Source: a virus (taxonomy: Duplodnaviria > Heunggongvirae > Uroviricota > Caudoviricetes). Taken from it: 8,791 bases of DNA. The translations under genes and the position numbers were made by a program. The notes below the pieces were generated by a model, which saw only the letters and a list, made by a program, of their open reading frames with translations, made no database searches and was not told where the DNA came from. Below, in pieces: positions 1 to 8,721 of this stretch; the first letter of the stretch is position 1; each line of letters begins with the position of its first letter. The stretch spans positions 1 to 8,791 of IMG/VR virus record IMGVR_UViG_2740892488_000005. One strand, given 5' to 3'.

Positions 1-46
1 ACTTGTGATAAATCCGAATGGTTTGGTCGCCGTTCGGGGTAACTGG

Positions 47-68
47 CCCGCCTTGTGCGGGTCTTTTT
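47..68 (+). terminator. Putative rho-independent terminator ending an upstream off-window transcript
   Basis: Hairpin CCCGC (47-51) / loop CTTGT / GCGGG (57-61) followed directly by TCTTTTT (62-68). A TAA at 40-42 could be the stop of a gene entering from the left. Confidence 0.45.
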
Positions 69-127
69 GCTATCTAAAGGGTGCCGGTTACGTTTCCGGC
101 GTCGTTATGTTTCCATTACGACCGTAC

Positions 128-200
128 AGGGCTGGTCAGGCCCGGGCTGGTCTTTCCTGTTTTGAGCTGGTCAGGCTCATGGTCAACGCTGGTCAGGCGT
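128..200 (-). repeat. Tandem array of three stem-loops with conserved 7-nt loop (TGGTCAG on plus, CUGACCA if transcribed leftward) and covarying 4-5 bp stems
   Basis: Loops at 133-139, 168-174 and 190-196. Stems GGGC/GCCC (129-132/140-143), TGAGC/GCTCA (163-167/175-179), ACGC/GCGT (186-189/197-200). Same element occurs inverted at 2191-2205 and 4615-4631. Confidence 0.6.
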
Positions 201-291
201 GGTACTTCCTCCGGTCTTTCCCTGGTGTCACGCTGCGGGTTTGGCCTCTCCTGTTGGGGACTCAGGCACAGCGATAAAACCTGGCTGTGTG

Positions 292-319
292 AAAAAATGG
301 CCCATCGTGCGGACTGGGC
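292..319 (-). terminator. Possible intrinsic terminator on the minus strand
   Basis: On the minus strand GCCCA / 10-nt loop / TGGGC (plus 300-304 pairs with 315-319), then C and a T6 run (plus A-run 292-297). Stem is short, so tentative. Confidence 0.3.
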
Positions 320-764
320 AAAGACTAAACACAGCAAATTGATGATGGGCGCCGGAATCGAACCGGGTAACGGGCAGGGAGTTCCCGTTAAACACCTGTT
401 CACCACAACCGGGAGCGCACTCCGCCATTTCAAAATTTAACGACAAAGCTCAAAGTTGAGTCGATGAAGTGCGCTCTCGTGTTGTAGCCAGGACTCTTCC
501 CTGGTGGTCACACCGTATCGCCTTGATGGTGAATCAATCGCTCATACCTGGCTGTGGCTTGCACATTCCGGCTACCTGCTATGGAGACAACGCGTTAAGG
601 CTCCGCTTCCATCCAGACCGCTTCGACACATGTGCCATATGCCGGTGAAGTCTTTCCCTCTGTCACCGTGTTGGCGCCGACGCGCAAAATTTGGTGCCGT
701 CTTTCCGGCTGTCAGAACGTGTTTCTGAACAACTGCCGCTGGGTAAGCGTTGTTGATGAAAGTG

Positions 765-820
765 ACTTTACAATTTGTATTTGTAATGGTCAATGTGTTT
801 TTAAAAAATAATTTGTAGTG
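765..820. promoter_or_regulatory. OL-like operator cluster downstream of the repressor gene
   Basis: AT-rich block with TTTGTA at 774-779, 780-785 and 812-817; palindrome TACAA-T-TTGTA at 769-779; 9-mer ATTTGTAAT (779-787) also present at 1372-1380 in the repressor/cro intergenic region. Confidence 0.4.
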
Positions 821-911
821 AGGGGCAAAAAAATATTCACTGTGTAAAGGTGTTTTTGTGTTAGGGGAAAGTTGCATGCCAGCAGCGGCTGGCCTGGAAA
901 TTTGAACTGAA

Positions 912-1304
912 CTATTTTGTCTGGTTTTTGGCTTCAAGTAGTTCTTTTAGCAGTAGATCGAAGTGCTCTCTTTTTTCTTTTAGCTCATTGATTAATTTAT
1001 TTTTTTCGCTCTCAGGCAGTCCTCTGAATAGTTGCAGTAGAGCCTGTTCTTGCGGGGTTAGTTCTTGATTGTAATTACCCGGGTGTAGTGTGGATTCATC
1101 CAAATATTCCCCTTCATTCATGAAGAAAAAATGAACAGGGTATCCGGTCACTTTTGCTAGCTTGTCTAATTTATCTTTTCTTGGAGTTACCCCATTACAC
1201 CATGCCTGAACTGATTGAGCCGTAACCCCAATATGGCGAGCTAACTCAGATTGAGACCAGCCTAAGTCTTTTAGAATCCGTTGTAGTCGGCTAGCAAAAG
1301 CCAT
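912..1304 (-). CDS. Prophage CI-like repressor, XRE-family HTH, 130 aa, with no LexA-like S24 peptidase domain
   Basis: ORF 912..1304 (-). N-terminal HTH signature (LGWSQSELARHIGVTAQSVQAW) and helical C-terminus; divergent from a cro-like gene across an operator-rich intergenic region. No Shine-Dalgarno within about 15 nt upstream of the ATG, so possibly a short-leader or leaderless mRNA. Confidence 0.8.
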   Translation of the reverse strand: MAFASRLQRILKDLGWSQSELARHIGVTAQSVQAWCNGVTPRKDKLDKLAKVTGYPVHFFFMNEGEYLDESTLHPGNYNQELTPQEQALLQLFRGLPESEKNKLINELKEKREHFDLLLKELLEAKNQTK

Positions 1305-1424
1305 GTTTTTCGTTTTTTGTGTTCATACCGTAAGGATACAAGGTTTAATTGTAGGGAGCATTGCAAATATAATTTGTAATTACAGTTATTGTTTGTAATG
1401 ATGACGCGGACACAAGGAGTCCAT
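1305..1424. promoter_or_regulatory. Divergent promoter/operator region between repressor and cro-like gene (OR-like)
   Basis: AT-rich 120 bp intergenic region with perfect 10-bp palindrome TGTAATTACA (1375-1384), further TTTGTA copies at 1373-1378 and 1392-1397, a TTGCAA -35-like hexamer at 1361-1366, and AAGGAG SD at 1414-1419. Confidence 0.55.
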
Positions 1425-1655
1425 ATGGATAAACAACTGCAAGACAAAATTCTTTCCGTAATGAGTCAATCCGAGTTAGGGCGGCGATTAGGGAAAAAAC
1501 CACAAACGGTAAGCCTCTGGTTCAAAGGACGGGTTCCCGGTGAAGAGGTTTTGCGCACATCTGAAGCTCTTGAATGGCGCGTGACCCCTCATGATCTTAG
1601 ACCGGATCTTTACCCAAACCCAGATGACAGCTTGCCTAAAACGGAAGCAGCTTAA
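1425..1655 (+). CDS. Cro/YdaS-like HTH regulator, 76 aa
   Basis: ATG at 1425 preceded by AAGGAG (1414-1419). The track ORF starts at 1389 but that ATG lies inside the operator repeats with no SD. HTH (SQSELGRRLGKKPQTVSLWF) and the C-terminal HDLRPDLY motif typical of Cro/YdaS-type prophage proteins. Confidence 0.75.
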   Translation: MDKQLQDKILSVMSQSELGRRLGKKPQTVSLWFKGRVPGEEVLRTSEALEWRVTPHDLRPDLYPNPDDSLPKTEAA

Positions 1656-1713
1656 CTGTTGGTGAGCCCCAAATCTGATTAAGCGTAATCAATTTTTAGC
1701 GACAGGAGACGCT

Positions 1714-2190
1714 ATGGAAAACCAAGAGGAATTACAAAAAGAGATTTTGACCTGGGCGGCAAGGGCAGGGCAGGAACTCGTCACGATTGAAATCTGCCGG
1801 GCCTGGTTCAGTCAGGGACGCAATGATGAGTTGAGACTACATGAATTTGAGGACGCGGACGGCAACGTGGACTGGAGAGCCATCAACAACAATCGGCAGA
1901 AAATCTTTCGCTGGTTACGTGGCGAGACAACGGCGGCGCGCCGAAAAACTCAGGTGCTGGCCAGTGTGATGAAAGCCGTGCTACCCGCAGAACGGCGGGC
2001 ACGTCTGGAGTCGCCGGGCGATCCCGTTTTGCTGGCAACGCTGGCGGCAAAAGAAGGGGTGGAAGCGATTAACGCTGTACATCTCCACTTCGCGCCAGAG
2101 TTAACTATTCAGGAAATTGACGAAGCAATAGCGGCGCTGGTAGCGACGCGAGGAGCAGTGATACGCACTGCGCAAGACCACCATGCATGA
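1714..2190 (+). CDS. YdaT-like (CII-analog) prophage regulator, 158 aa
   Basis: ORF 1714..2190 with AGGAG at 1703-1707. Contains the motif NNRQKIFRWLRGETTAARRK, which I recognise from Rac-prophage YdaT-family proteins; sits immediately after the Cro/YdaS-like gene as in Rac-type immunity regions. Confidence 0.65.
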   Translation: MENQEELQKEILTWAARAGQELVTIEICRAWFSQGRNDELRLHEFEDADGNVDWRAINNNRQKIFRWLRGETTAARRKTQVLASVMKAVLPAERRARLESPGDPVLLATLAAKEGVEAINAVHLHFAPELTIQEIDEAIAALVATRGAVIRTAQDHHA

Positions 2191-3197: not shown

Positions 3198-4613
3198 ATG
3201 ATAAATAACGCGATTGCACTGTACAGCGTTGACGCAGAACAGGCTGTTCTGGGCTGTCTGATGCTGAATACCGACCACGACAGAACCAATGCGGTATTTG
3301 CGTTACTGAAACCGGAAACGTTTTATATCAATGCGCATCAGGTTATCTACCGGGAGATCAAAGGATTATTTCAAGCTGATAAACCAACTGACCTGATAAC
3401 ACTGACCGAACTGATGGAATCGAAGGGGCTGTATGAGCGCGTGGGGGGATTCGCATACCTGGCTGAAATGAGTAAGGCGGCGATTCCGGCCTCAATGGTC
3501 AACTACGCGAAAATTGTACGTGAAAAAGCCATTCTTCGTTATGCCGTGGAAAAGTTGAATTCTTGTCTGGAGATTATGATCCAGCCTGCAGATATGACTG
3601 CTACTGACAGGATCACCGCCGTTCAGCAAGTGATTGGGCAGGTGGCCGAACATTCCCGTACCGGGCATAAGGGCGGTTTGCGTCCGGCAAGTGAAGTCGT
3701 CGATGACTGGATAGATGACCTTGAGCGCCGTTTCAATGATCCAGCACATGCAGCCGGACTAACGCTCGGAATCGAAAGCCTTGATCGCTTAATGGCACCA
3801 AAGCAGGCGTTAAGAGGTTCATTGGTCGTTATTGGTGCCCGGCCAAAAATGGGCAAGACAGCCGCGTTTAATAAAATTGCGGTGCATTTTGCTCTGAATC
3901 ATCGTTTGCCGACGCTGGTATTTAGCCTGGAAATGACTGACAGAAGTCTCATTGAACGCATGGTTGCGCAGGAAGCAAAGGTCAATTCGGAGATTTTTTA
4001 TCTTGGCCCTAACGATGAATCTGAATTGAGTCTCGCAATAGCAAAGGCGGGGGAGATTGCCGAATCCAACATGATGATTGACAGCACGGCAGGTGTAACC
4101 CTTGCGCATATTGTCGCTGAATGTCGAAAAGTTAAACGGATGCGTGGCTCGGTTGGCCTGGTGGCAATTGACTATTTGACGCTGATGAAGACCGAATCGG
4201 CAGAGCGTAGGGATATTGCGTATGGCGATATCACAACCGGTTTGAAGAACCTGGCAAAAGAGCTGGATTGTGTTGTGGTCCTGCTGACGCAACTCAACCG
4301 AAAGCTTGAAGAACGTGCCGATAAGCGGCCTAACCCGAGCGACAGTAAAGATACCGGGCAGATCGAACAAGATTGCGATGTCTGGATTGGCCTCTATCGT
4401 GATGCTGTTTATAACGAAAATGCCGACCCAAATCTCATGGAAATGTTGCTACGTCTGAACCGCGAAGGACCATCGGGAACAGCCTATGCCCTGATGAAAA
4501 ATGGCTCAGTTATTGATATCAGCGATGAGGAGGTTTATCGCCTTACCAACGACCGCTCAGAAAAAAATAAACGTTATTCCCGTAGCGATAATTCTCGCAC
4601 AAATGAATTTTAA
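3198..4613 (+). CDS. DnaB-family replicative DNA helicase (phage-encoded, P22 gp12-like)
   Basis: Track ORF 3171..4613; preferred start is ATG 3198 with AAGGAAG SD at 3183-3189. DnaB N-terminal motif (SVDAEQAVLGCLML), Walker A (GARPKMGKTA), SLEM motif, and LTQLNRKLEERADKRPNPSDSKDTGQIEQDCDVWIGLYRD matching the DnaB H3/H4 region. Confidence 0.9.
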   Translation: MINNAIALYSVDAEQAVLGCLMLNTDHDRTNAVFALLKPETFYINAHQVIYREIKGLFQADKPTDLITLTELMESKGLYERVGGFAYLAEMSKAAIPASMVNYAKIVREKAILRYAVEKLNSCLEIMIQPADMTATDRITAVQQVIGQVAEHSRTGHKGGLRPASEVVDDWIDDLERRFNDPAHAAGLTLGIESLDRLMAPKQALRGSLVVIGARPKMGKTAAFNKIAVHFALNHRLPTLVFSLEMTDRSLIERMVAQEAKVNSEIFYLGPNDESELSLAIAKAGEIAESNMMIDSTAGVTLAHIVAECRKVKRMRGSVGLVAIDYLTLMKTESAERRDIAYGDITTGLKNLAKELDCVVVLLTQLNRKLEERADKRPNPSDSKDTGQIEQDCDVWIGLYRDAVYNENADPNLMEMLLRLNREGPSGTAYALMKNGSVIDISDEEVYRLTNDRSEKNKRYSRSDNSRTNEF

Positions 4614-6238: not shown

Positions 6239-6329
6239 ATTGACTTAGAAAAAGTCCGGGGCTATAGTTTCCGCGCAGCCGCAAAATCGGTTGCCGGGAT
6301 TGGCGTCCCGGATATCTAAGTGACGCATA

Positions 6330-6349
6330 GCCGCGTTAGCGGTTTTTTT
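6330..6349 (+). terminator. Putative intrinsic terminator closing the small-gene operon
   Basis: GCCGC (6330-6334) / loop GTTA / GCGG (6339-6342) followed by T7 (6343-6349). Short stem, moderate confidence. Confidence 0.45.
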
Positions 6350-6448
6350 ATGTGTTAGGCACGGCCACATTCGCATTATGGTGGGCTGTGTGGGGGCTTC
6401 TGTGGAAGCGCCGGGTTCACTTAGCCGGTTACGCCAACCCTGCACAGC

Positions 6449-6481
6449 TCACCACCAGATGATTGGCGTCGCTGGTGGTGA
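6449..6481. promoter_or_regulatory. Perfect 10-bp inverted repeat immediately upstream of the antirepressor start
   Basis: TCACCACCAG (6449-6458), 13-nt spacer ATGATTGGCGTCG, CTGGTGGTGA (6472-6481); right arm contains the Chi octamer GCTGGTGG (6471-6478). Antirepressor SD AAGTGAGG at 6495-6502 and ATG at 6511. Confidence 0.4.
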
Positions 6482-6510
6482 TGAAAAAAACACTAAGTGA
6501 GGCCACTGCG

Positions 6511-7300
6511 ATGACAGTCCAAATATCTGCGGAATCCCTTTCTCCGCTACATCATAACCAACTTCCCGTCATCACTACTGAATTGCTTGCCAGTTTGTAT
6601 GGCACGGAAGTAAATGGTATCCAGCAAAACTTCAAGCGCAACATCGCCAGATTTGTCGTAGGAAAGCATTTTTTTTAAGCTGGAAGGTAATGAATTACGC
6701 GACTTCAAAAACAGACTGACAGATAGTCAGTCAGTTGCTAAACATACCCGATCCCTCATTCTCTGGACAGAACGCGGCGCAGCTCGCCATGCCAAAATGC
6801 TGGAAACAGAACAGGCCTGGGAAGTTTTCGAAAAGCTGGAAGATTGTTATTTTAGCCAGCGTCCAGAGAGGCGGAGTACAACTACCGATGACCGTACTCC
6901 CTTGCGTGATGCCGTTAATATACTGGTCGGCAAGAAAGGCATGATGTATCCCGATGCCTACACCATGATTCATCAACGCTTCGCCGTCTCTCACATAGAA
7001 CAACTGTCACAGACGCAAATGTTAGAGGCGATTGAATACATCCACTGCCTGCTACTCGATGAAAATCACCCAACCATTCCAGATTTTTCTTTTATCACCA
7101 CTATCAAAAATGGAAAAGTGACCGGGATGCGCCATGTTGCCAAAGGCGAACATCTGATGACCTTTGACGCTTTCAAAGAGATCGCTGAGCGGGCAGGGTA
7201 TCTGGTGATCCACAGCGACAATCTGCGAAGTATGACACTGGATAAATTGATGGTAATGGGGAAAAAGTCGGCTATATCCGTTGCTAATTCAGCATTTTGA
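6511..7300 (+). pseudogene. Phage antirepressor-type regulatory protein, interrupted by a frameshift in a T8 run
   Basis: N-terminal part in frame 1 (6511-6678, ends GKHFF-stop) and C-terminal part in frame 2 (track ORF 6797..7300, open from 6677). Removing one T from T8 (6669-6676) gives a continuous ~262-aa protein with the conserved stretch GKHFFKLEGNELRDFKN...SLILWTERGAARHAKMLETEQAWEVFEKLEDCYF, which I recognise as antirepressor-like. Confidence 0.65.
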
Positions 7301-7589: not shown

Positions 7590-8294
7590 TTAGTTTTGAT
7601 CCACTGACGCTGAGAAGGCAGCAAATCTTTTTTTCTTCGCCGGGGTTAACTTGCTCCAGACGGTACTCAAATCAGAGTCGGCATTCGCAAATGCCATTCG
7701 GGACTGATCAAGGTTGTCAGCTTTTTGCGGCTGAAGTTGTGCCTGTCTCTCTATTTGCTTCTCCGCCTCATACTTAGCCTGTTCTTGCGCCCTGAGTTGC
7801 ACCTGTTGTTCCGCTTCAATTTGACTCTGTTGGGCATCCTTAGCCTGCTGGATTTTCTGCTGCTCAACGATCGGGGTGATAATGGAAAGCGATGTCAGTA
7901 AAGCGGCGCCCACTGATATCGGATTATCAGTAGAGGTTTTTACAAAAACGTTTTTCTGATCGTCGGTCGCCTGCACGGTGTAGGTGATACGTTTTGAAAA
8001 GGCGTTTGCGTTGTTCTCCAAAAACAGGCTTTCCATTTGCTTATCGAGATTACGATTAAAATTCTTTCTGTAAGCATCTGAAAGCTGGACGTACTCGTTC
8101 GCAGATAGAGTCATCGTCACGGTCCCTTCACAAGTTTTCATTGTGCTGCCCGTGTCACTTGATGTTGTGGAGATCTCAGAGATGGCTAGTTTGATCTTGT
8201 CCAGTGTGCTTCGTTTGGTCTGATTAGTGACATCAGGGTATTTATCGACCTGTTCAGAGAGTCCTTCATAAGCAGATTTTTTTAATAAATCCAT
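7590..8294 (-). CDS. Hypothetical protein, 234 aa: N-terminal domain, central hydrophobic helix, Gln/Glu-rich coiled-coil C-terminal region
   Basis: ORF 7590..8294 (-). Hydrophobic stretch ISVGAALLTSLSIITPIV followed by a heptad-like Q/E/A-rich segment. Frame stays open upstream of the ATG until a stop at plus 8358-8360, inside the IS end, so the native 5' end or promoter may have been displaced by the IS insertion. Confidence 0.55.
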   Translation of the reverse strand: MDLLKKSAYEGLSEQVDKYPDVTNQTKRSTLDKIKLAISEISTTSSDTGSTMKTCEGTVTMTLSANEYVQLSDAYRKNFNRNLDKQMESLFLENNANAFSKRITYTVQATDDQKNVFVKTSTDNPISVGAALLTSLSIITPIVEQQKIQQAKDAQQSQIEAEQQVQLRAQEQAKYEAEKQIERQAQLQPQKADNLDQSRMAFANADSDLSTVWSKLTPAKKKRFAAFSASVDQN

Positions 8295-8420
8295 GAGAGC
8301 TGACTGGGTTATTTCCGAAGAACAACCGATCTCATCTTTTTTGTTATCTGAAGTGGTTTACTGAATTTGGCCACCTGAACAGAGGTGATATGCTCACCTC
8401 AGAACAACACAGGTGCCATA

Positions 8421-8721
8421 ATGAAAAAAAGAAATTTCAGCGCAGAGTTTAAACGCGAATCCGCTCAACTGGTCGTTGACCAGAATTACACCGTGGCAGA
8501 TGCAGCCAGCGCTATGGATGTCGGCCTTTCCACAATGACGCGATGGGTGAAACAATTACGTGATGAGCGGCAGGGAAAACACCAAAAGCCTCCCCTATTA
8601 CCCCGGAACAAATTGAAATCCGTGAGCTCAGGAAAAAGCTACAACGTATTGAAATGGAAAATGAAATATTAAAAAGGCTACCGCGCTCTTGATGTCAGAC
8701 TCCCTGAACAGTTCTCGATAA
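8421..8721 (+). pseudogene. IS3-family transposase OrfA (HTH plus leucine-zipper regulator), apparently frameshifted twice
   Basis: [53 protein letters not shown] in frame 3 (from 8421); expected continuation [27 protein letters not shown] in frame 2 from 8597; expected C-terminus [14 protein letters not shown] in frame 1 ending at TAA 8719-8721. Frame changes coincide with an A4 run (8576-8579) and the A5G slippery-site region (8671-8676). Confidence 0.65.

Follow-up and report, generated by a model that had tools for sequence, protein, structure and literature searches.

Two AT-rich blocks flank a short CI-like repressor gene in the window, by which we mean the whole 8,791-nucleotide stretch of viral DNA analysed here, and the locus raises the question of whether they serve as the left and right operators of an immunity switch. 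The initial annotation had suggested this from clusters of the word TTTGTA on both sides of the gene, and had added a leftward pL-like promoter. Our analysis indicates that the two blocks are probably the OL and OR sets of a lambdoid immunity switch with a short non-cleavable repressor, a reading to which we give a probability of about 80%; the design is already well known, and the element is a fresh example of it rather than a novel mechanism. Our evidence comprises sites, statistics, conservation, promoter-like geometry and protein homologies, all of it sequence-based, and from it we infer that the repressor and Cro bind, that the promoters are active, and how autoregulation, looping and induction would work. 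A near-identical prophage-like element is present in 437-449 of 5426 complete E. coli genomes (about 8%), ST131 strains among them, and a near-identity search of a phage collection with positions 600-1750 gave no match. A scan of genome contigs with one protein gave a single locus; relatives were collected by protein searches and contig look-ups, and represent E. coli, Salmonella, Serratia and Klebsiella lineages.

We found that both blocks are AT-rich as originally described (GC 0.28 at 751-850 and 0.30 at 1301-1400), and that TTTGTA occurs on the plus strand at the five positions first listed (774-779, 780-785, 812-817, 1373-1378 and 1392-1397). The word is not limited to the two blocks as had been claimed, with 11 copies in the window on both strands and a sixth plus-strand copy at 6594. 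These 11 copies compare with 4.8 expected, a count reached by 4 of 200 shuffles, and against shuffles of the local AT-rich block the three copies in 760-860 gave P = 0.0003 and the two in 1305-1424 gave P = 0.008. The word ATTTGTAAT, reported as common to 779-787 and 1372-1380, matches exactly, and the small palindromes TACAATTTGTA (769-779) and TGTAATTACA (1375-1384) are present as claimed. TTTGTA, the shared word and the small palindromes exceed chance even given the local AT-rich composition. As an operator unit, TTTGTA was rejected because its copy at 774-779 falls in a non-conserved palindrome centre; this copy is missing in Salmonella, Serratia, Klebsiella and one E. coli variant. Both small palindromes were likewise rejected as units: that at 769-779 is not conserved and amounts to one arm plus the centre of a larger site at 768-786, and that at 1375-1384 is the junction of two abutting sites described below.

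The true repeat unit is a 19-bp palindrome, YTACAA-N7-TTGTAR, with the core ACAA-N7-TTGT. Exactly three exact matches to TTRCA-N9-TGTAA occur in the 8.8 kb window (768, 1361 and 1380), and a fourth site with the exact core lies at 1336. Three of the 19-bp sites stand between the divergent repressor and Cro-like genes and are conserved in relatives: an OR3-like operator at 1336-1354 (ATACAAGGTTTAATTGTAG), an OR2-like operator at 1361-1379 (TTGCAAATATAATTTGTAA) and, directly abutting it, an OR1-like operator at 1380-1398 (TTACAGTTATTGTTTGTAA). The operator set first proposed for this region has three sites rather than two, the site at 1336-1354 having been missed. This OR3-like operator is kept in all relatives, and more distant members of the family have a counterpart, TACAAG-N5-TTGTA, beside the start of the repressor gene. 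Among E. coli variants the OR1-like operator differs in its centre alone (TG to GA).

On the left, an OL1-like operator at 768-786 (TTACAATTTGTATTTGTAA) carries the palindrome TTACAA-N7-TTGTAA, and a weak OL2-like site at 800-818 (TTTAAAAAATAATTTGTAG) offers a single good half-site, ATTTGTAG, 32 bp from OL1. Using a symmetrised weight matrix trained solely on each lineage's own right-hand sites, we found that the two left-block sites were the top two other matches in the window and in the Salmonella (L003), Serratia (L002) and Klebsiella (L006) relatives, so that right-hand sites locate the left sites in four lineages, which argues for operator sets on either side of the repressor gene. The OL1-like site scored 20.8 with the right-hand-only matrix, above all 200 whole-window shuffles (P = 2e-5 against shuffles of the local AT-rich block), and across the 25-kb E. 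coli locus only OL1 and the three right-hand sites scored above 17. The OL2-like site is marginal when taken alone (score 11-12, local-shuffle P = 0.023) and is outscored by two unrelated sites across the 25-kb E. coli locus; it lies 32-33 bp from OL1 and ranks among the two best non-OR matches in all four lineages. A further ACAA-N7-TTGT core at 8130-8144 was treated as chance, as it lies inside an open reading frame with mismatched flanks and a matrix score of about 10.

Could AT-rich intergenic DNA have produced the likeness of the two blocks by chance? Short T/A-rich words recur easily in DNA of about 28-30% GC, and OL2 by itself lies within the chance range, but the local shuffles (OL1, P = 2e-5; TTTGTA count, P = 3e-4), a right-to-left site prediction that came true independently in four lineages, and the distribution of substitutions within the sites make this explanation barely credible. 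Within E. coli, substitutions fall in site centres and flanks and the arms are free of them. Across lineages, the central 5 bp of OL1 read TTGTA, TTTCA, CAAAA and CATAA, while TACAAT, ATTTGTA and the -35 hexamer of the leftward promoter are invariant when the left blocks of the four lineages are aligned, as are ATTTGTA and TTTAAAA in the OL2 region. Invariant arms set against variable centres further support operators on both sides of the repressor gene.

The left block also contains the sole promoter-like match in positions 1-1750, a predicted sigma-70 promoter at 765-793 on the minus strand with -35 TTGACC (793-788), a 17-nt spacer and -10 TAAAGT (770-765), reading leftward from a predicted start near 757-758. 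The OL1-like operator lies in its spacer and overlaps the first 3 nt of the -10. Searched by the same criteria, which returned 1-3 matches per strand in each relative, Salmonella (TTGACC/TAGAGT), Serratia (TTGACC/TAGATT) and Klebsiella (TTGACG/TAGATT) each have an orthologous site. The leftward pL-like promoter that had been proposed for this block is thus backed by a promoter-like site in the corresponding position of every lineage; in one E. coli variant the final T of the -10, otherwise invariant, is changed. Inspection by eye for a rightward promoter in the left block revealed only weak, non-conserved hexamers, and this possibility was rejected.

The genes around this block vary. In relatives, the repressor gene is separated from the left block by a 157-aa gene and an intrinsic terminator, yet the block is retained, which fits an independent promoter-operator unit; the OL-OR spacing is about 1.05 kb in these relatives and about 0.6 kb here. 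This E. coli lineage showed no intrinsic terminator in the interval from the repressor stop to pL. In Serratia, the putative pL is directly followed by an oppositely oriented 187-aa gene. Five more distant family loci each have further copies of their right-hand motif 50-90 nt beyond the stop codon of the repressor gene; in L013 an additional gene comes after the repressor, and the copies are found about 75-125 nt beyond the stop of that gene. Distant members of the repressor family have different operator sequences in the same two-sided layout, which likewise supports operators on both sides.

The repressor gene (912-1304, minus strand) encodes 130 aa as read in the window, with an HTH_3 domain. 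Its true start is probably the ATG at 1326-1324, giving 137 aa; this upstream ATG is out of frame in the window because of an extra T at 1313, which is not present in SK1144, HY220605 or APEC20/16, and it is the sole candidate repressor start in the Salmonella relative. A Pfam search of the protein returned HTH families only and found no S24-type peptidase or self-cleavage domain, which in lambda CI/LexA-type repressors has a Ser-Lys dyad and an Ala-Gly cleavage site. The predicted structure consists of an HTH domain, a disordered linker and a C-terminal helical hairpin. By tblastn the protein is 33% identical to the Gifsy-1/-2 repressors (98% query coverage, E = 4e-11), and over its C-terminal residues 60-127 it has 37% identity to PaaR2 (E = 1e-9; probability by hhalign, 94.6%), while the N-terminal DNA-binding domain gave no alignment with its PaaR2 counterpart. 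The repressor is a short non-cleavable Gifsy-type protein. Foldseek with the repressor model retrieved mostly isolated HTH domains, together with a weak match to SinR (E = 6e-4, TM 0.42-0.52).

Among solved structures, the phage 434 repressor is the best match to the DNA-binding domain (E = 4e-5; Foldseek rmsd 1.5 A), and the operators of the two systems share ACAA/TTGT half-site cores. Phage 434 operators read ACAA-N6-TTGT, whereas the core spacing here is N7 with unlike flanks; the recognition helices also differ (TAQSVQA here versus TQQSIEQ in 434) and the C-terminal domains are unrelated. The predicted recognition helix, TAQSVQAW, is identical or near-identical in the lineages that have the same operator. 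In Klebsiella phage ST16-OXA48phi5.1 the recognition helix differs, and OR and OL both read AACAAG-N5-CTTGT, retaining the ACAA-N7-TTGT spacing. These comparisons are consistent with a repressor dimer that would recognise the 19-bp palindrome YTACAA-N7-TTGTAR.

Downstream of the right-hand sites lies a Cro-like gene of the YdaS family (1425-1655, plus strand; PF15943 YdaS_toxin, 7.7e-9; phrog_35 transcriptional repressor), whose product is 76-80% identical in close relatives. It is followed by a CII-like gene of the YdaT family (1714-2190, plus strand; PF06254, 2e-15; phrog_163 CII-like activator, 7e-42; PDB 8bt1 YdaT, 1.2e-4), and both Pfam matches exceed the curated cut-offs. Between the two genes, at 1676-1691, an operator-like inverted repeat, TGATT-AAGCGT-AATCA, matches the footprinted YdaT site TTGATT-N6-AATCAA (PMC9986795). 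The extended form, CTGATT-AAGCGT-AATCAA at 1675-1692, is the lone match in the window, and all relatives, as well as Sp12/CP-933P, have the repeat at the orthologous position.

The HTH of the YdaS-like protein (SQSELGRRLGKKPQTVSLW) resembles that of the repressor (SQSELARHIGVTAQSVQAW), and the two proteins are equally conserved. The Cro-like protein, with its related recognition helix, would probably bind the same operator sites, and the resemblance also bears on two readings in which the repressor is not the main ligand: the palindromes may be bound mainly by YdaS or another factor, as both proteins protect overlapping regions in CP-933P, or the left block may be conserved purely as a promoter and UP element. 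The OL2-like site, half-site included, overlaps an A/T-rich UP-like tract upstream of the pL-like -35, and the conserved bases of OL2 could reflect this UP element instead of an operator. The polymerase needs no conservation in a promoter spacer, so the invariance of the 768-786 arms around a varying centre counts against a promoter-only reading, and the same palindrome recurs at three right-hand sites. The operator moreover changes together with the repressor recognition helix in phage phi5.1, and in lambdoid phages CI and Cro as a rule use common operators, which leaves these readings with little probability compared with operators for the repressor.

For the right-hand promoters we assigned elements by eye. 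The putative PR (plus strand) has -35 TTGTAA (1374-1379), contained in the right arm of the OR2-like operator, and -10 TAATGA/AATGAT (1396-1402), with the OR1-like operator between them in the geometry that OL1 has in pL; the putative repressor promoter (minus strand) has -10 TATCCT (1338-1333), overlapped by the OR3-like operator, and a weak -35, abutted by the left edge of the OR2-like operator. Transcription would be expected to start at about 1408 from PR and, leaderless, at 1326 from the repressor promoter. Both fell below the threshold of the promoter tool. Conservation discriminates weakly between operators and promoters in the right-hand intergenic region, where it reaches 85% overall.

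This arrangement suggests how the switch may work. OR1 and OR2 would cover PR, and their occupancy would silence the Cro-like, CII-like (YdaT family) and replication genes. The repressor's own promoter, probably leaderless, has OR2 next to its weak -35 and OR3 over its -10, a placement by which the repressor would first activate and then repress its own synthesis. In the left block, OL1 fills the pL spacer and the start of the -10, so that bound repressor would exclude RNA polymerase, and OL2, three helical turns away, could help binding cooperatively. The pL-like transcript would consist of a roughly 860-nt structured, repeat-rich leader followed by early-left genes ending in excisionase and integrase.

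The closest experimental precedent for this two-sided layout is the PaaR2-YdaS-YdaT system of CP-933P, which has PR, PRM, PRE and, downstream of the repressor operon, PL with OL1-3; PaaR2 and YdaS repress PR, PRM and PL in reporter assays, and PaaR2 forms octamers (PMC8630535). By analogy, CP-933P/Sp12 strengthens the case for operators on both sides. In both systems a short peptidase-less repressor faces away from a YdaS-type Cro, after which comes a YdaT-type CII analogue; several intergenic palindromes are joined by a second set in a leftward promoter past the repressor operon, ydaS and ydaT are separated by a TGATT-N6-AATCA YdaT site, the two repressors have homologous C-terminal domains and the repressor mRNA is probably leaderless. 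In contrast, the operator half-site is GTTTAGTAA there and TTACAAAT here, the N-terminal DNA-binding domains fail to align, no paaA2-parE2 toxin-antitoxin genes follow the repressor here, and binding and promoter activity that are demonstrated there are predicted here.

Lambda has three right and three left operators, with rexAB following the repressor. The likeness extends to three right-hand operators over divergent PR/PRM, a left set over pL past the repressor operon, an extra gene after the repressor in relatives that parallels rexAB, and scope for long-range looping. Unlike lambda, the repressor here lacks an S24 self-cleavage domain, the operators are 19 bp rather than 17 bp, the left block has one strong and one weak site rather than three, and the CII analogue is YdaT. 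There is also no N gene after pL: the first open reading frame was rejected as an N-like antiterminator because its 106-aa product has no arginine-rich motif.

The two operator sets are about 570-610 bp apart, and repressors bound at OL and OR could bridge them by a loop. Looping is a plausible extrapolation because the repressor's C-terminal hairpin is homologous to that of octamer-forming PaaR2. Alternatively, the left block may be a real leftward promoter with a local operator and no OL-OR loop, each site being controlled independently by a repressor dimer or tetramer, and we consider this arrangement a serious possibility at somewhat under even odds. It would suit the unconserved OL-OR distance (about 0.6 kb versus about 1.05 kb in relatives), the presence of just one strong site in the left block, and a repressor model that shows a helical hairpin alone, with SinR, which forms a tetramer, as best fold match. 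The homology to PaaR2, reported to be octameric (PMC8630535), argues in the other direction. So do lambda loops, which span variable distances (2-4 kb) and do not need strict phasing.

As to induction, a lambdoid switch with this repressor would probably be relieved by an anti-repressor and not by RecA-stimulated cleavage. The repressors GfoR, GtgR and GfhR of Salmonella Gifsy-1/-2/-3 are non-cleavable proteins of about 136 aa, inactivated by anti-repressors upon induction (PMC3121763). With GfoR/GtgR the present repressor shares full-length homology and similar size, and the window likewise contains an anti-repressor gene. The Gifsy anti-repressors are small, LexA-controlled and encoded outside the immunity region, whereas the candidate homologue at 6463-7300 belongs to the phrog_4792 type, has an N-terminal ORF6N domain and is preceded by a P1/P7-type c4 antisense RNA; as read in the window it carries a homopolymer error. 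No LexA box was found near it or elsewhere in the window; a one-mismatch match at 396-411 was set aside as expected by chance.

We also observed an unannotated module at 288-337, on the same strand as pL and about 460 nt downstream of its predicted start, that shares 84% identity with the 3' half, seed plus terminator, of RprA, a small RNA of the chromosome. The seed, TTGCTGTGTnTAGTCTTnGCCC, does not differ among rprA, the prophage module and the Klebsiella relatives, and the terminator hairpin varies; an Rfam search of positions 1-920 yielded nothing above threshold. A minus-strand RNA from the module would be expected to end near 296. In Klebsiella the module comes immediately after the hairpins of the pL leader, so that a transcript of about 200 nt would end at its own terminator. 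It is conceivable, if on balance unlikely, that the OL-controlled pL yields a regulatory small RNA first and not a protein. The element would then encode an RprA mimic under the control of the immunity repressor, and transcription into the early-left genes would require read-through or antitermination, to which the repeated leader hairpins with GAAAGA loops might contribute. In the E. coli lineage, where the terminator of the relatives is absent, read-through from the repressor gene might instead account for expression of the module.

These results define the operator sequence and promoter layout for the immunity switch of this E. coli prophage-like element, and add a sequence-defined, lambda-like left and right layout for short repressors of the Gifsy/PaaR2 class, which are unable to sense RecA directly. 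General concepts of immunity control are left unchanged, and the RprA-like module alone could open something new. For ST131, the sites give defined targets for immunity, induction and anti-repressor cross-talk.

The sequence is the early region of a prophage-like element, which in E. coli SK1144 adjoins a tRNA-Leu gene downstream of pgsA. An integrase, a DUF4224 protein and other leftward genes lie leftmost in the SK1144 order, followed by an unannotated stretch of about 1 kb (window 1-911), a gene for a 130-aa HTH repressor on the minus strand (912-1304), a Cro-like gene of the YdaS family (1425-1655), a CII-like gene of the YdaT family (1714-2190), and then an O-like initiator and a DnaB helicase. 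A near-identical segment is found in 437-449 of 5426 complete E. coli genomes, ST131 strains included, always as one chromosomal copy. Compared with SK1144 over 8348 nt, the window shows no substitutions and seven single-base indels in homopolymers (window 64, 351, 1313, 2369, 2997, 6669 and 7628), which are probably assembly errors in the window's source. The indel at 1313 shifts the frame between two candidate repressor start codons, that at 2369 shortens a small ORF, and those at 2997 and 6669 cause the truncation of the O-like ORF and the split of the anti-repressor ORF, respectively. The SK1144 alignment ends at 8348, indicating that an insertion sequence interrupts the element there relative to SK1144; the first part of an IS3-family transposase OrfA (HTH_Tnp_1) occupies 8385-8672.

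The initial annotation had proposed OL/OR-style operators on both sides of the repressor gene from clusters of the word TTTGTA. We found its coordinates for words and palindromes correct in both blocks, which are AT-rich (GC content 0.28 and 0.30), but TTTGTA is not confined to them as claimed, with 11 copies on both strands of the window versus 4.8 expected. Local counts nevertheless exceed those in shuffles of the AT-rich blocks themselves (P = 0.0003 and 0.008). Read as a palindrome, the repeat unit gives 19-bp sites of the form TTRCA-N9-TGTAA, with a half-site consensus of TTACAAAT. The window holds exactly three (768-786, 1361-1379 and 1380-1398) and no others with one mismatch allowed. 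A fourth site, ATACAAGGTTTAATTGTAG at 1336-1354, has the exact core ACAA-N7-TTGT in common with them, and in relatives it shows one mismatch only to the 19-bp pattern. The two palindromes originally noted were set aside as units: TGTAATTACA is the junction of the 1361 and 1380 sites, and TACAA-T-TTGTA is the left arm and centre of the 768 site.

We then scanned whole loci with a symmetrised weight matrix trained on the three right-hand sites alone. The 768 site scored 20.8 in the window, level with the training sites and above the maximum of 200 shuffles (17.2), and the next-best match was a weaker left-block site at 800-818 (score 12.1). When the matrix was built, lineage by lineage, from the right-hand sites of that lineage, the best two other matches in Salmonella, Serratia and Klebsiella were the orthologous pair in the left block, and the distance between them is always 32-33 bp. 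Against shuffles of the local AT-rich block, P was 2e-5 for the strong left site and 0.023 for the weak one. Across the 25-kb SK1144 locus, scores above 17 occur at the four strong sites only, and the score of the weak site is by itself unexceptional.

A leftward pL-like promoter in the left block had also been suggested, and promoter prediction returned a candidate sigma-70 promoter on the minus strand (-35 TTGACC at 793-788, a 17-nt spacer, and -10 TAAAGT at 770-765), the sole sigma-70-like match in window 1-1750. The strong left site fills its spacer and the first three bases of its -10, while the weak site overlaps a UP-element-like A/T tract upstream of the -35; transcription would start near 757. 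By the same criteria an orthologous promoter is predicted in all lineages (TTGACC/TAGAGT, TTGACC/TAGATT and TTGACG/TAGATT), among just one to three predictions per strand of 4.5-8.8 kb.

The left block is conserved among relatives whose repressors are 88% (Salmonella) or 66-68% (Serratia, Klebsiella and one metagenome) identical to that of the window. A four-lineage alignment shows no variation in the two arms (TACAAT and ATTTGTA), in the -35 or in a second ATTTGTA, and the palindrome's central 5 bp read TTGTA, TTTCA, CAAAA or CATAA by lineage. Variants within E. coli carry a few substitutions in the centres of the left and 1380 sites and in flanks, and none in the arms. In every relative the repressor gene is separated from the left block by a 157-aa gene, with no Pfam match on record and no PHROG match, and by a clear intrinsic terminator. 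Because the block is retained directly after this extra gene and terminator, it behaves as an independent promoter-operator unit, unlike the 3' end of the repressor gene. The E. coli lineage of the window (819-911) is without both the 157-aa gene and the strong intrinsic terminator of the relatives. From the repressor stop to pL no canonical terminator is predicted, so repressor-gene transcripts might continue into the pL leader. Serratia has an inserted 187-aa ORF of opposite orientation (4021-4584 of that locus) that separates the pL block from the conserved part of the leader, so the putative pL there would read antisense through it.

The right-hand promoters fall below the promoter tool's threshold and were assigned by reading the sequence. 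A putative PR has its -35 (TTGTAA) at 1374-1379 and its -10 (TAATGA/AATGAT) at 1396-1402, and the 1380 site sits between them with the same geometry as at pL. On the minus strand, a putative repressor promoter with -10 TATCCT (1338-1333) would start transcription at the A of the ATG at 1326, so that the mRNA would be leaderless like those of lambda cI and paaR2. Salmonella offers no start codon other than this ATG. In SK1144, HY220605 and APEC20/16 the ATG is in frame with the repressor gene, and the extra T at 1313 is all that puts it out of frame in the window. The 1336 site overlaps the proposed -10 and the 1361 site abuts a weak -35, placements that match the roles of lambda OR3 and OR2.

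The repressor carries an HTH_3 domain and lacks a peptidase domain. In its AlphaFold2 model (mean pLDDT 72), a disordered linker joins a five-helix HTH (1-61) to a helical hairpin (84-129). The model's fold best matches that of SinR, an HTH repressor that multimerises through a helical hook. Among solved structures, the 434 repressor is the best relative of the DNA-binding domain, and its operators also have ACAA/TTGT cores. Wherever the operator is conserved, so is the recognition helix TAQSVQAW. Klebsiella phage ST16-OXA48phi5.1 has a different helix (SPQAVQQW) and sites of its own, AACAAG-N5-CTTGT, that keep the ACAA-N7-TTGT spacing; two are on the right and one is 54 nt past the repressor stop. 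In five more distant family loci, too, the motif that each has on the right recurs shortly after the repressor operon. At full length the protein is 33% identical to the Gifsy-1 and Gifsy-2 repressors, which are non-cleavable and inactivated by anti-repressors (PMC3121763). A P1/P7-type immunity module at 6262-6459, comprising a c4 antisense RNA (75 bits), a1/b1 targets (53 bits) and an isrK-like RNA (80 bits), is followed by an anti-repressor gene (6463-7300; phrog_4792, ORF6N N-terminus) that is split in the window and intact in SK1144; together they likely form the induction route for the non-cleavable repressor.

Hairpins are conserved in the pL leader, and several of them have GAAAGA loops and show compensatory changes in their stems between lineages. 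An 8-mer (plus strand GTCTTTCC, minus strand GGAAAGAC) at 150-157, 214-221, 650-657 and 699-706 forms the GAAAGA loop of short hairpins on the leftward RNA and also lies within the ribosome-binding region of leftward genes (GAGGAAAGACCAATG); it occurs four times in the window, 6-9 times in Salmonella and Klebsiella relatives and once in Serratia. No N-like protein follows the leader in the window. About 460 nt downstream of the predicted pL start, and on the same (minus) strand, lies an unannotated RprA-like module (288-337, with a wider Rfam match at 290-399) that is 84% identical to the 3' 50 nt (seed and terminator) of rprA, a chromosomal gene present in nearly all E. coli genomes. Its Rfam RprA score is 36 bits, where the gathering score is 70. 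The same seed, TTGCTGTGTnTAGTCTTnGCCC, is found unchanged in rprA, this prophage and the Klebsiella relatives, while their terminator hairpins vary; in Klebsiella the module comes straight after the leader hairpins. A similar stretch occurs in one phage record, Escherichia phage LLS, and we found no paper using the term 'RprA-like'. A precedent is StxS, a small RNA that arises near a phage promoter and, on rpoS, works through the RprA seed region. Separately, the plus strand carries a good terminator-like hairpin (GGCCCGCCTTGTGCGGGTC followed by TTTTT) at 45-63, facing against the leftward genes around it; the hairpin is about 90% conserved in Salmonella and Klebsiella relatives and may mark the end of a small rightward RNA; Rfam matches to isrK and isrB over 1-67 are very weak.

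Taken together, matrix prediction, arm conservation and layout in relatives argue for OL/OR-style operators flanking the repressor gene, and a lambda-style switch is the best-supported reading of the region. Such a switch would have three operators on the right and one on the left within pL, used by both the repressor and the Cro-like protein, a CII analogue of the YdaT type with its own conserved operator, and induction via the anti-repressor. The proposed YdaT operator is an inverted repeat (TGATT-AAGCGT-AATCA, 1676-1691) between the Cro-like and YdaT-like genes that all relatives and Sakai Sp12 have at the corresponding position, and it matches the footprinted operator TTGATT-N6-AATCAA of CP-933P, the Sp12 prophage of E. 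coli O157:H7 (PMC9986795). Looping between the left and right operator sets is plausible by homology to the CP-933P repressor PaaR2 (Sakai genome sequence), the sole basis for it: residues 60-127 of the repressor here share 37% identity with the C-terminal part of PaaR2, for which octamers are reported (PMC8630535). CP-933P has exactly the same layout as this element, with OL1-3 downstream of the repressor operon and with PR, PRM and PL shown to be repressed by PaaR2 and YdaS (PMC8630535), whereas the element here has another DNA-binding domain, another operator sequence and no toxin-antitoxin genes. The layout is already known from CP-933P and would be unsurprising to a specialist.
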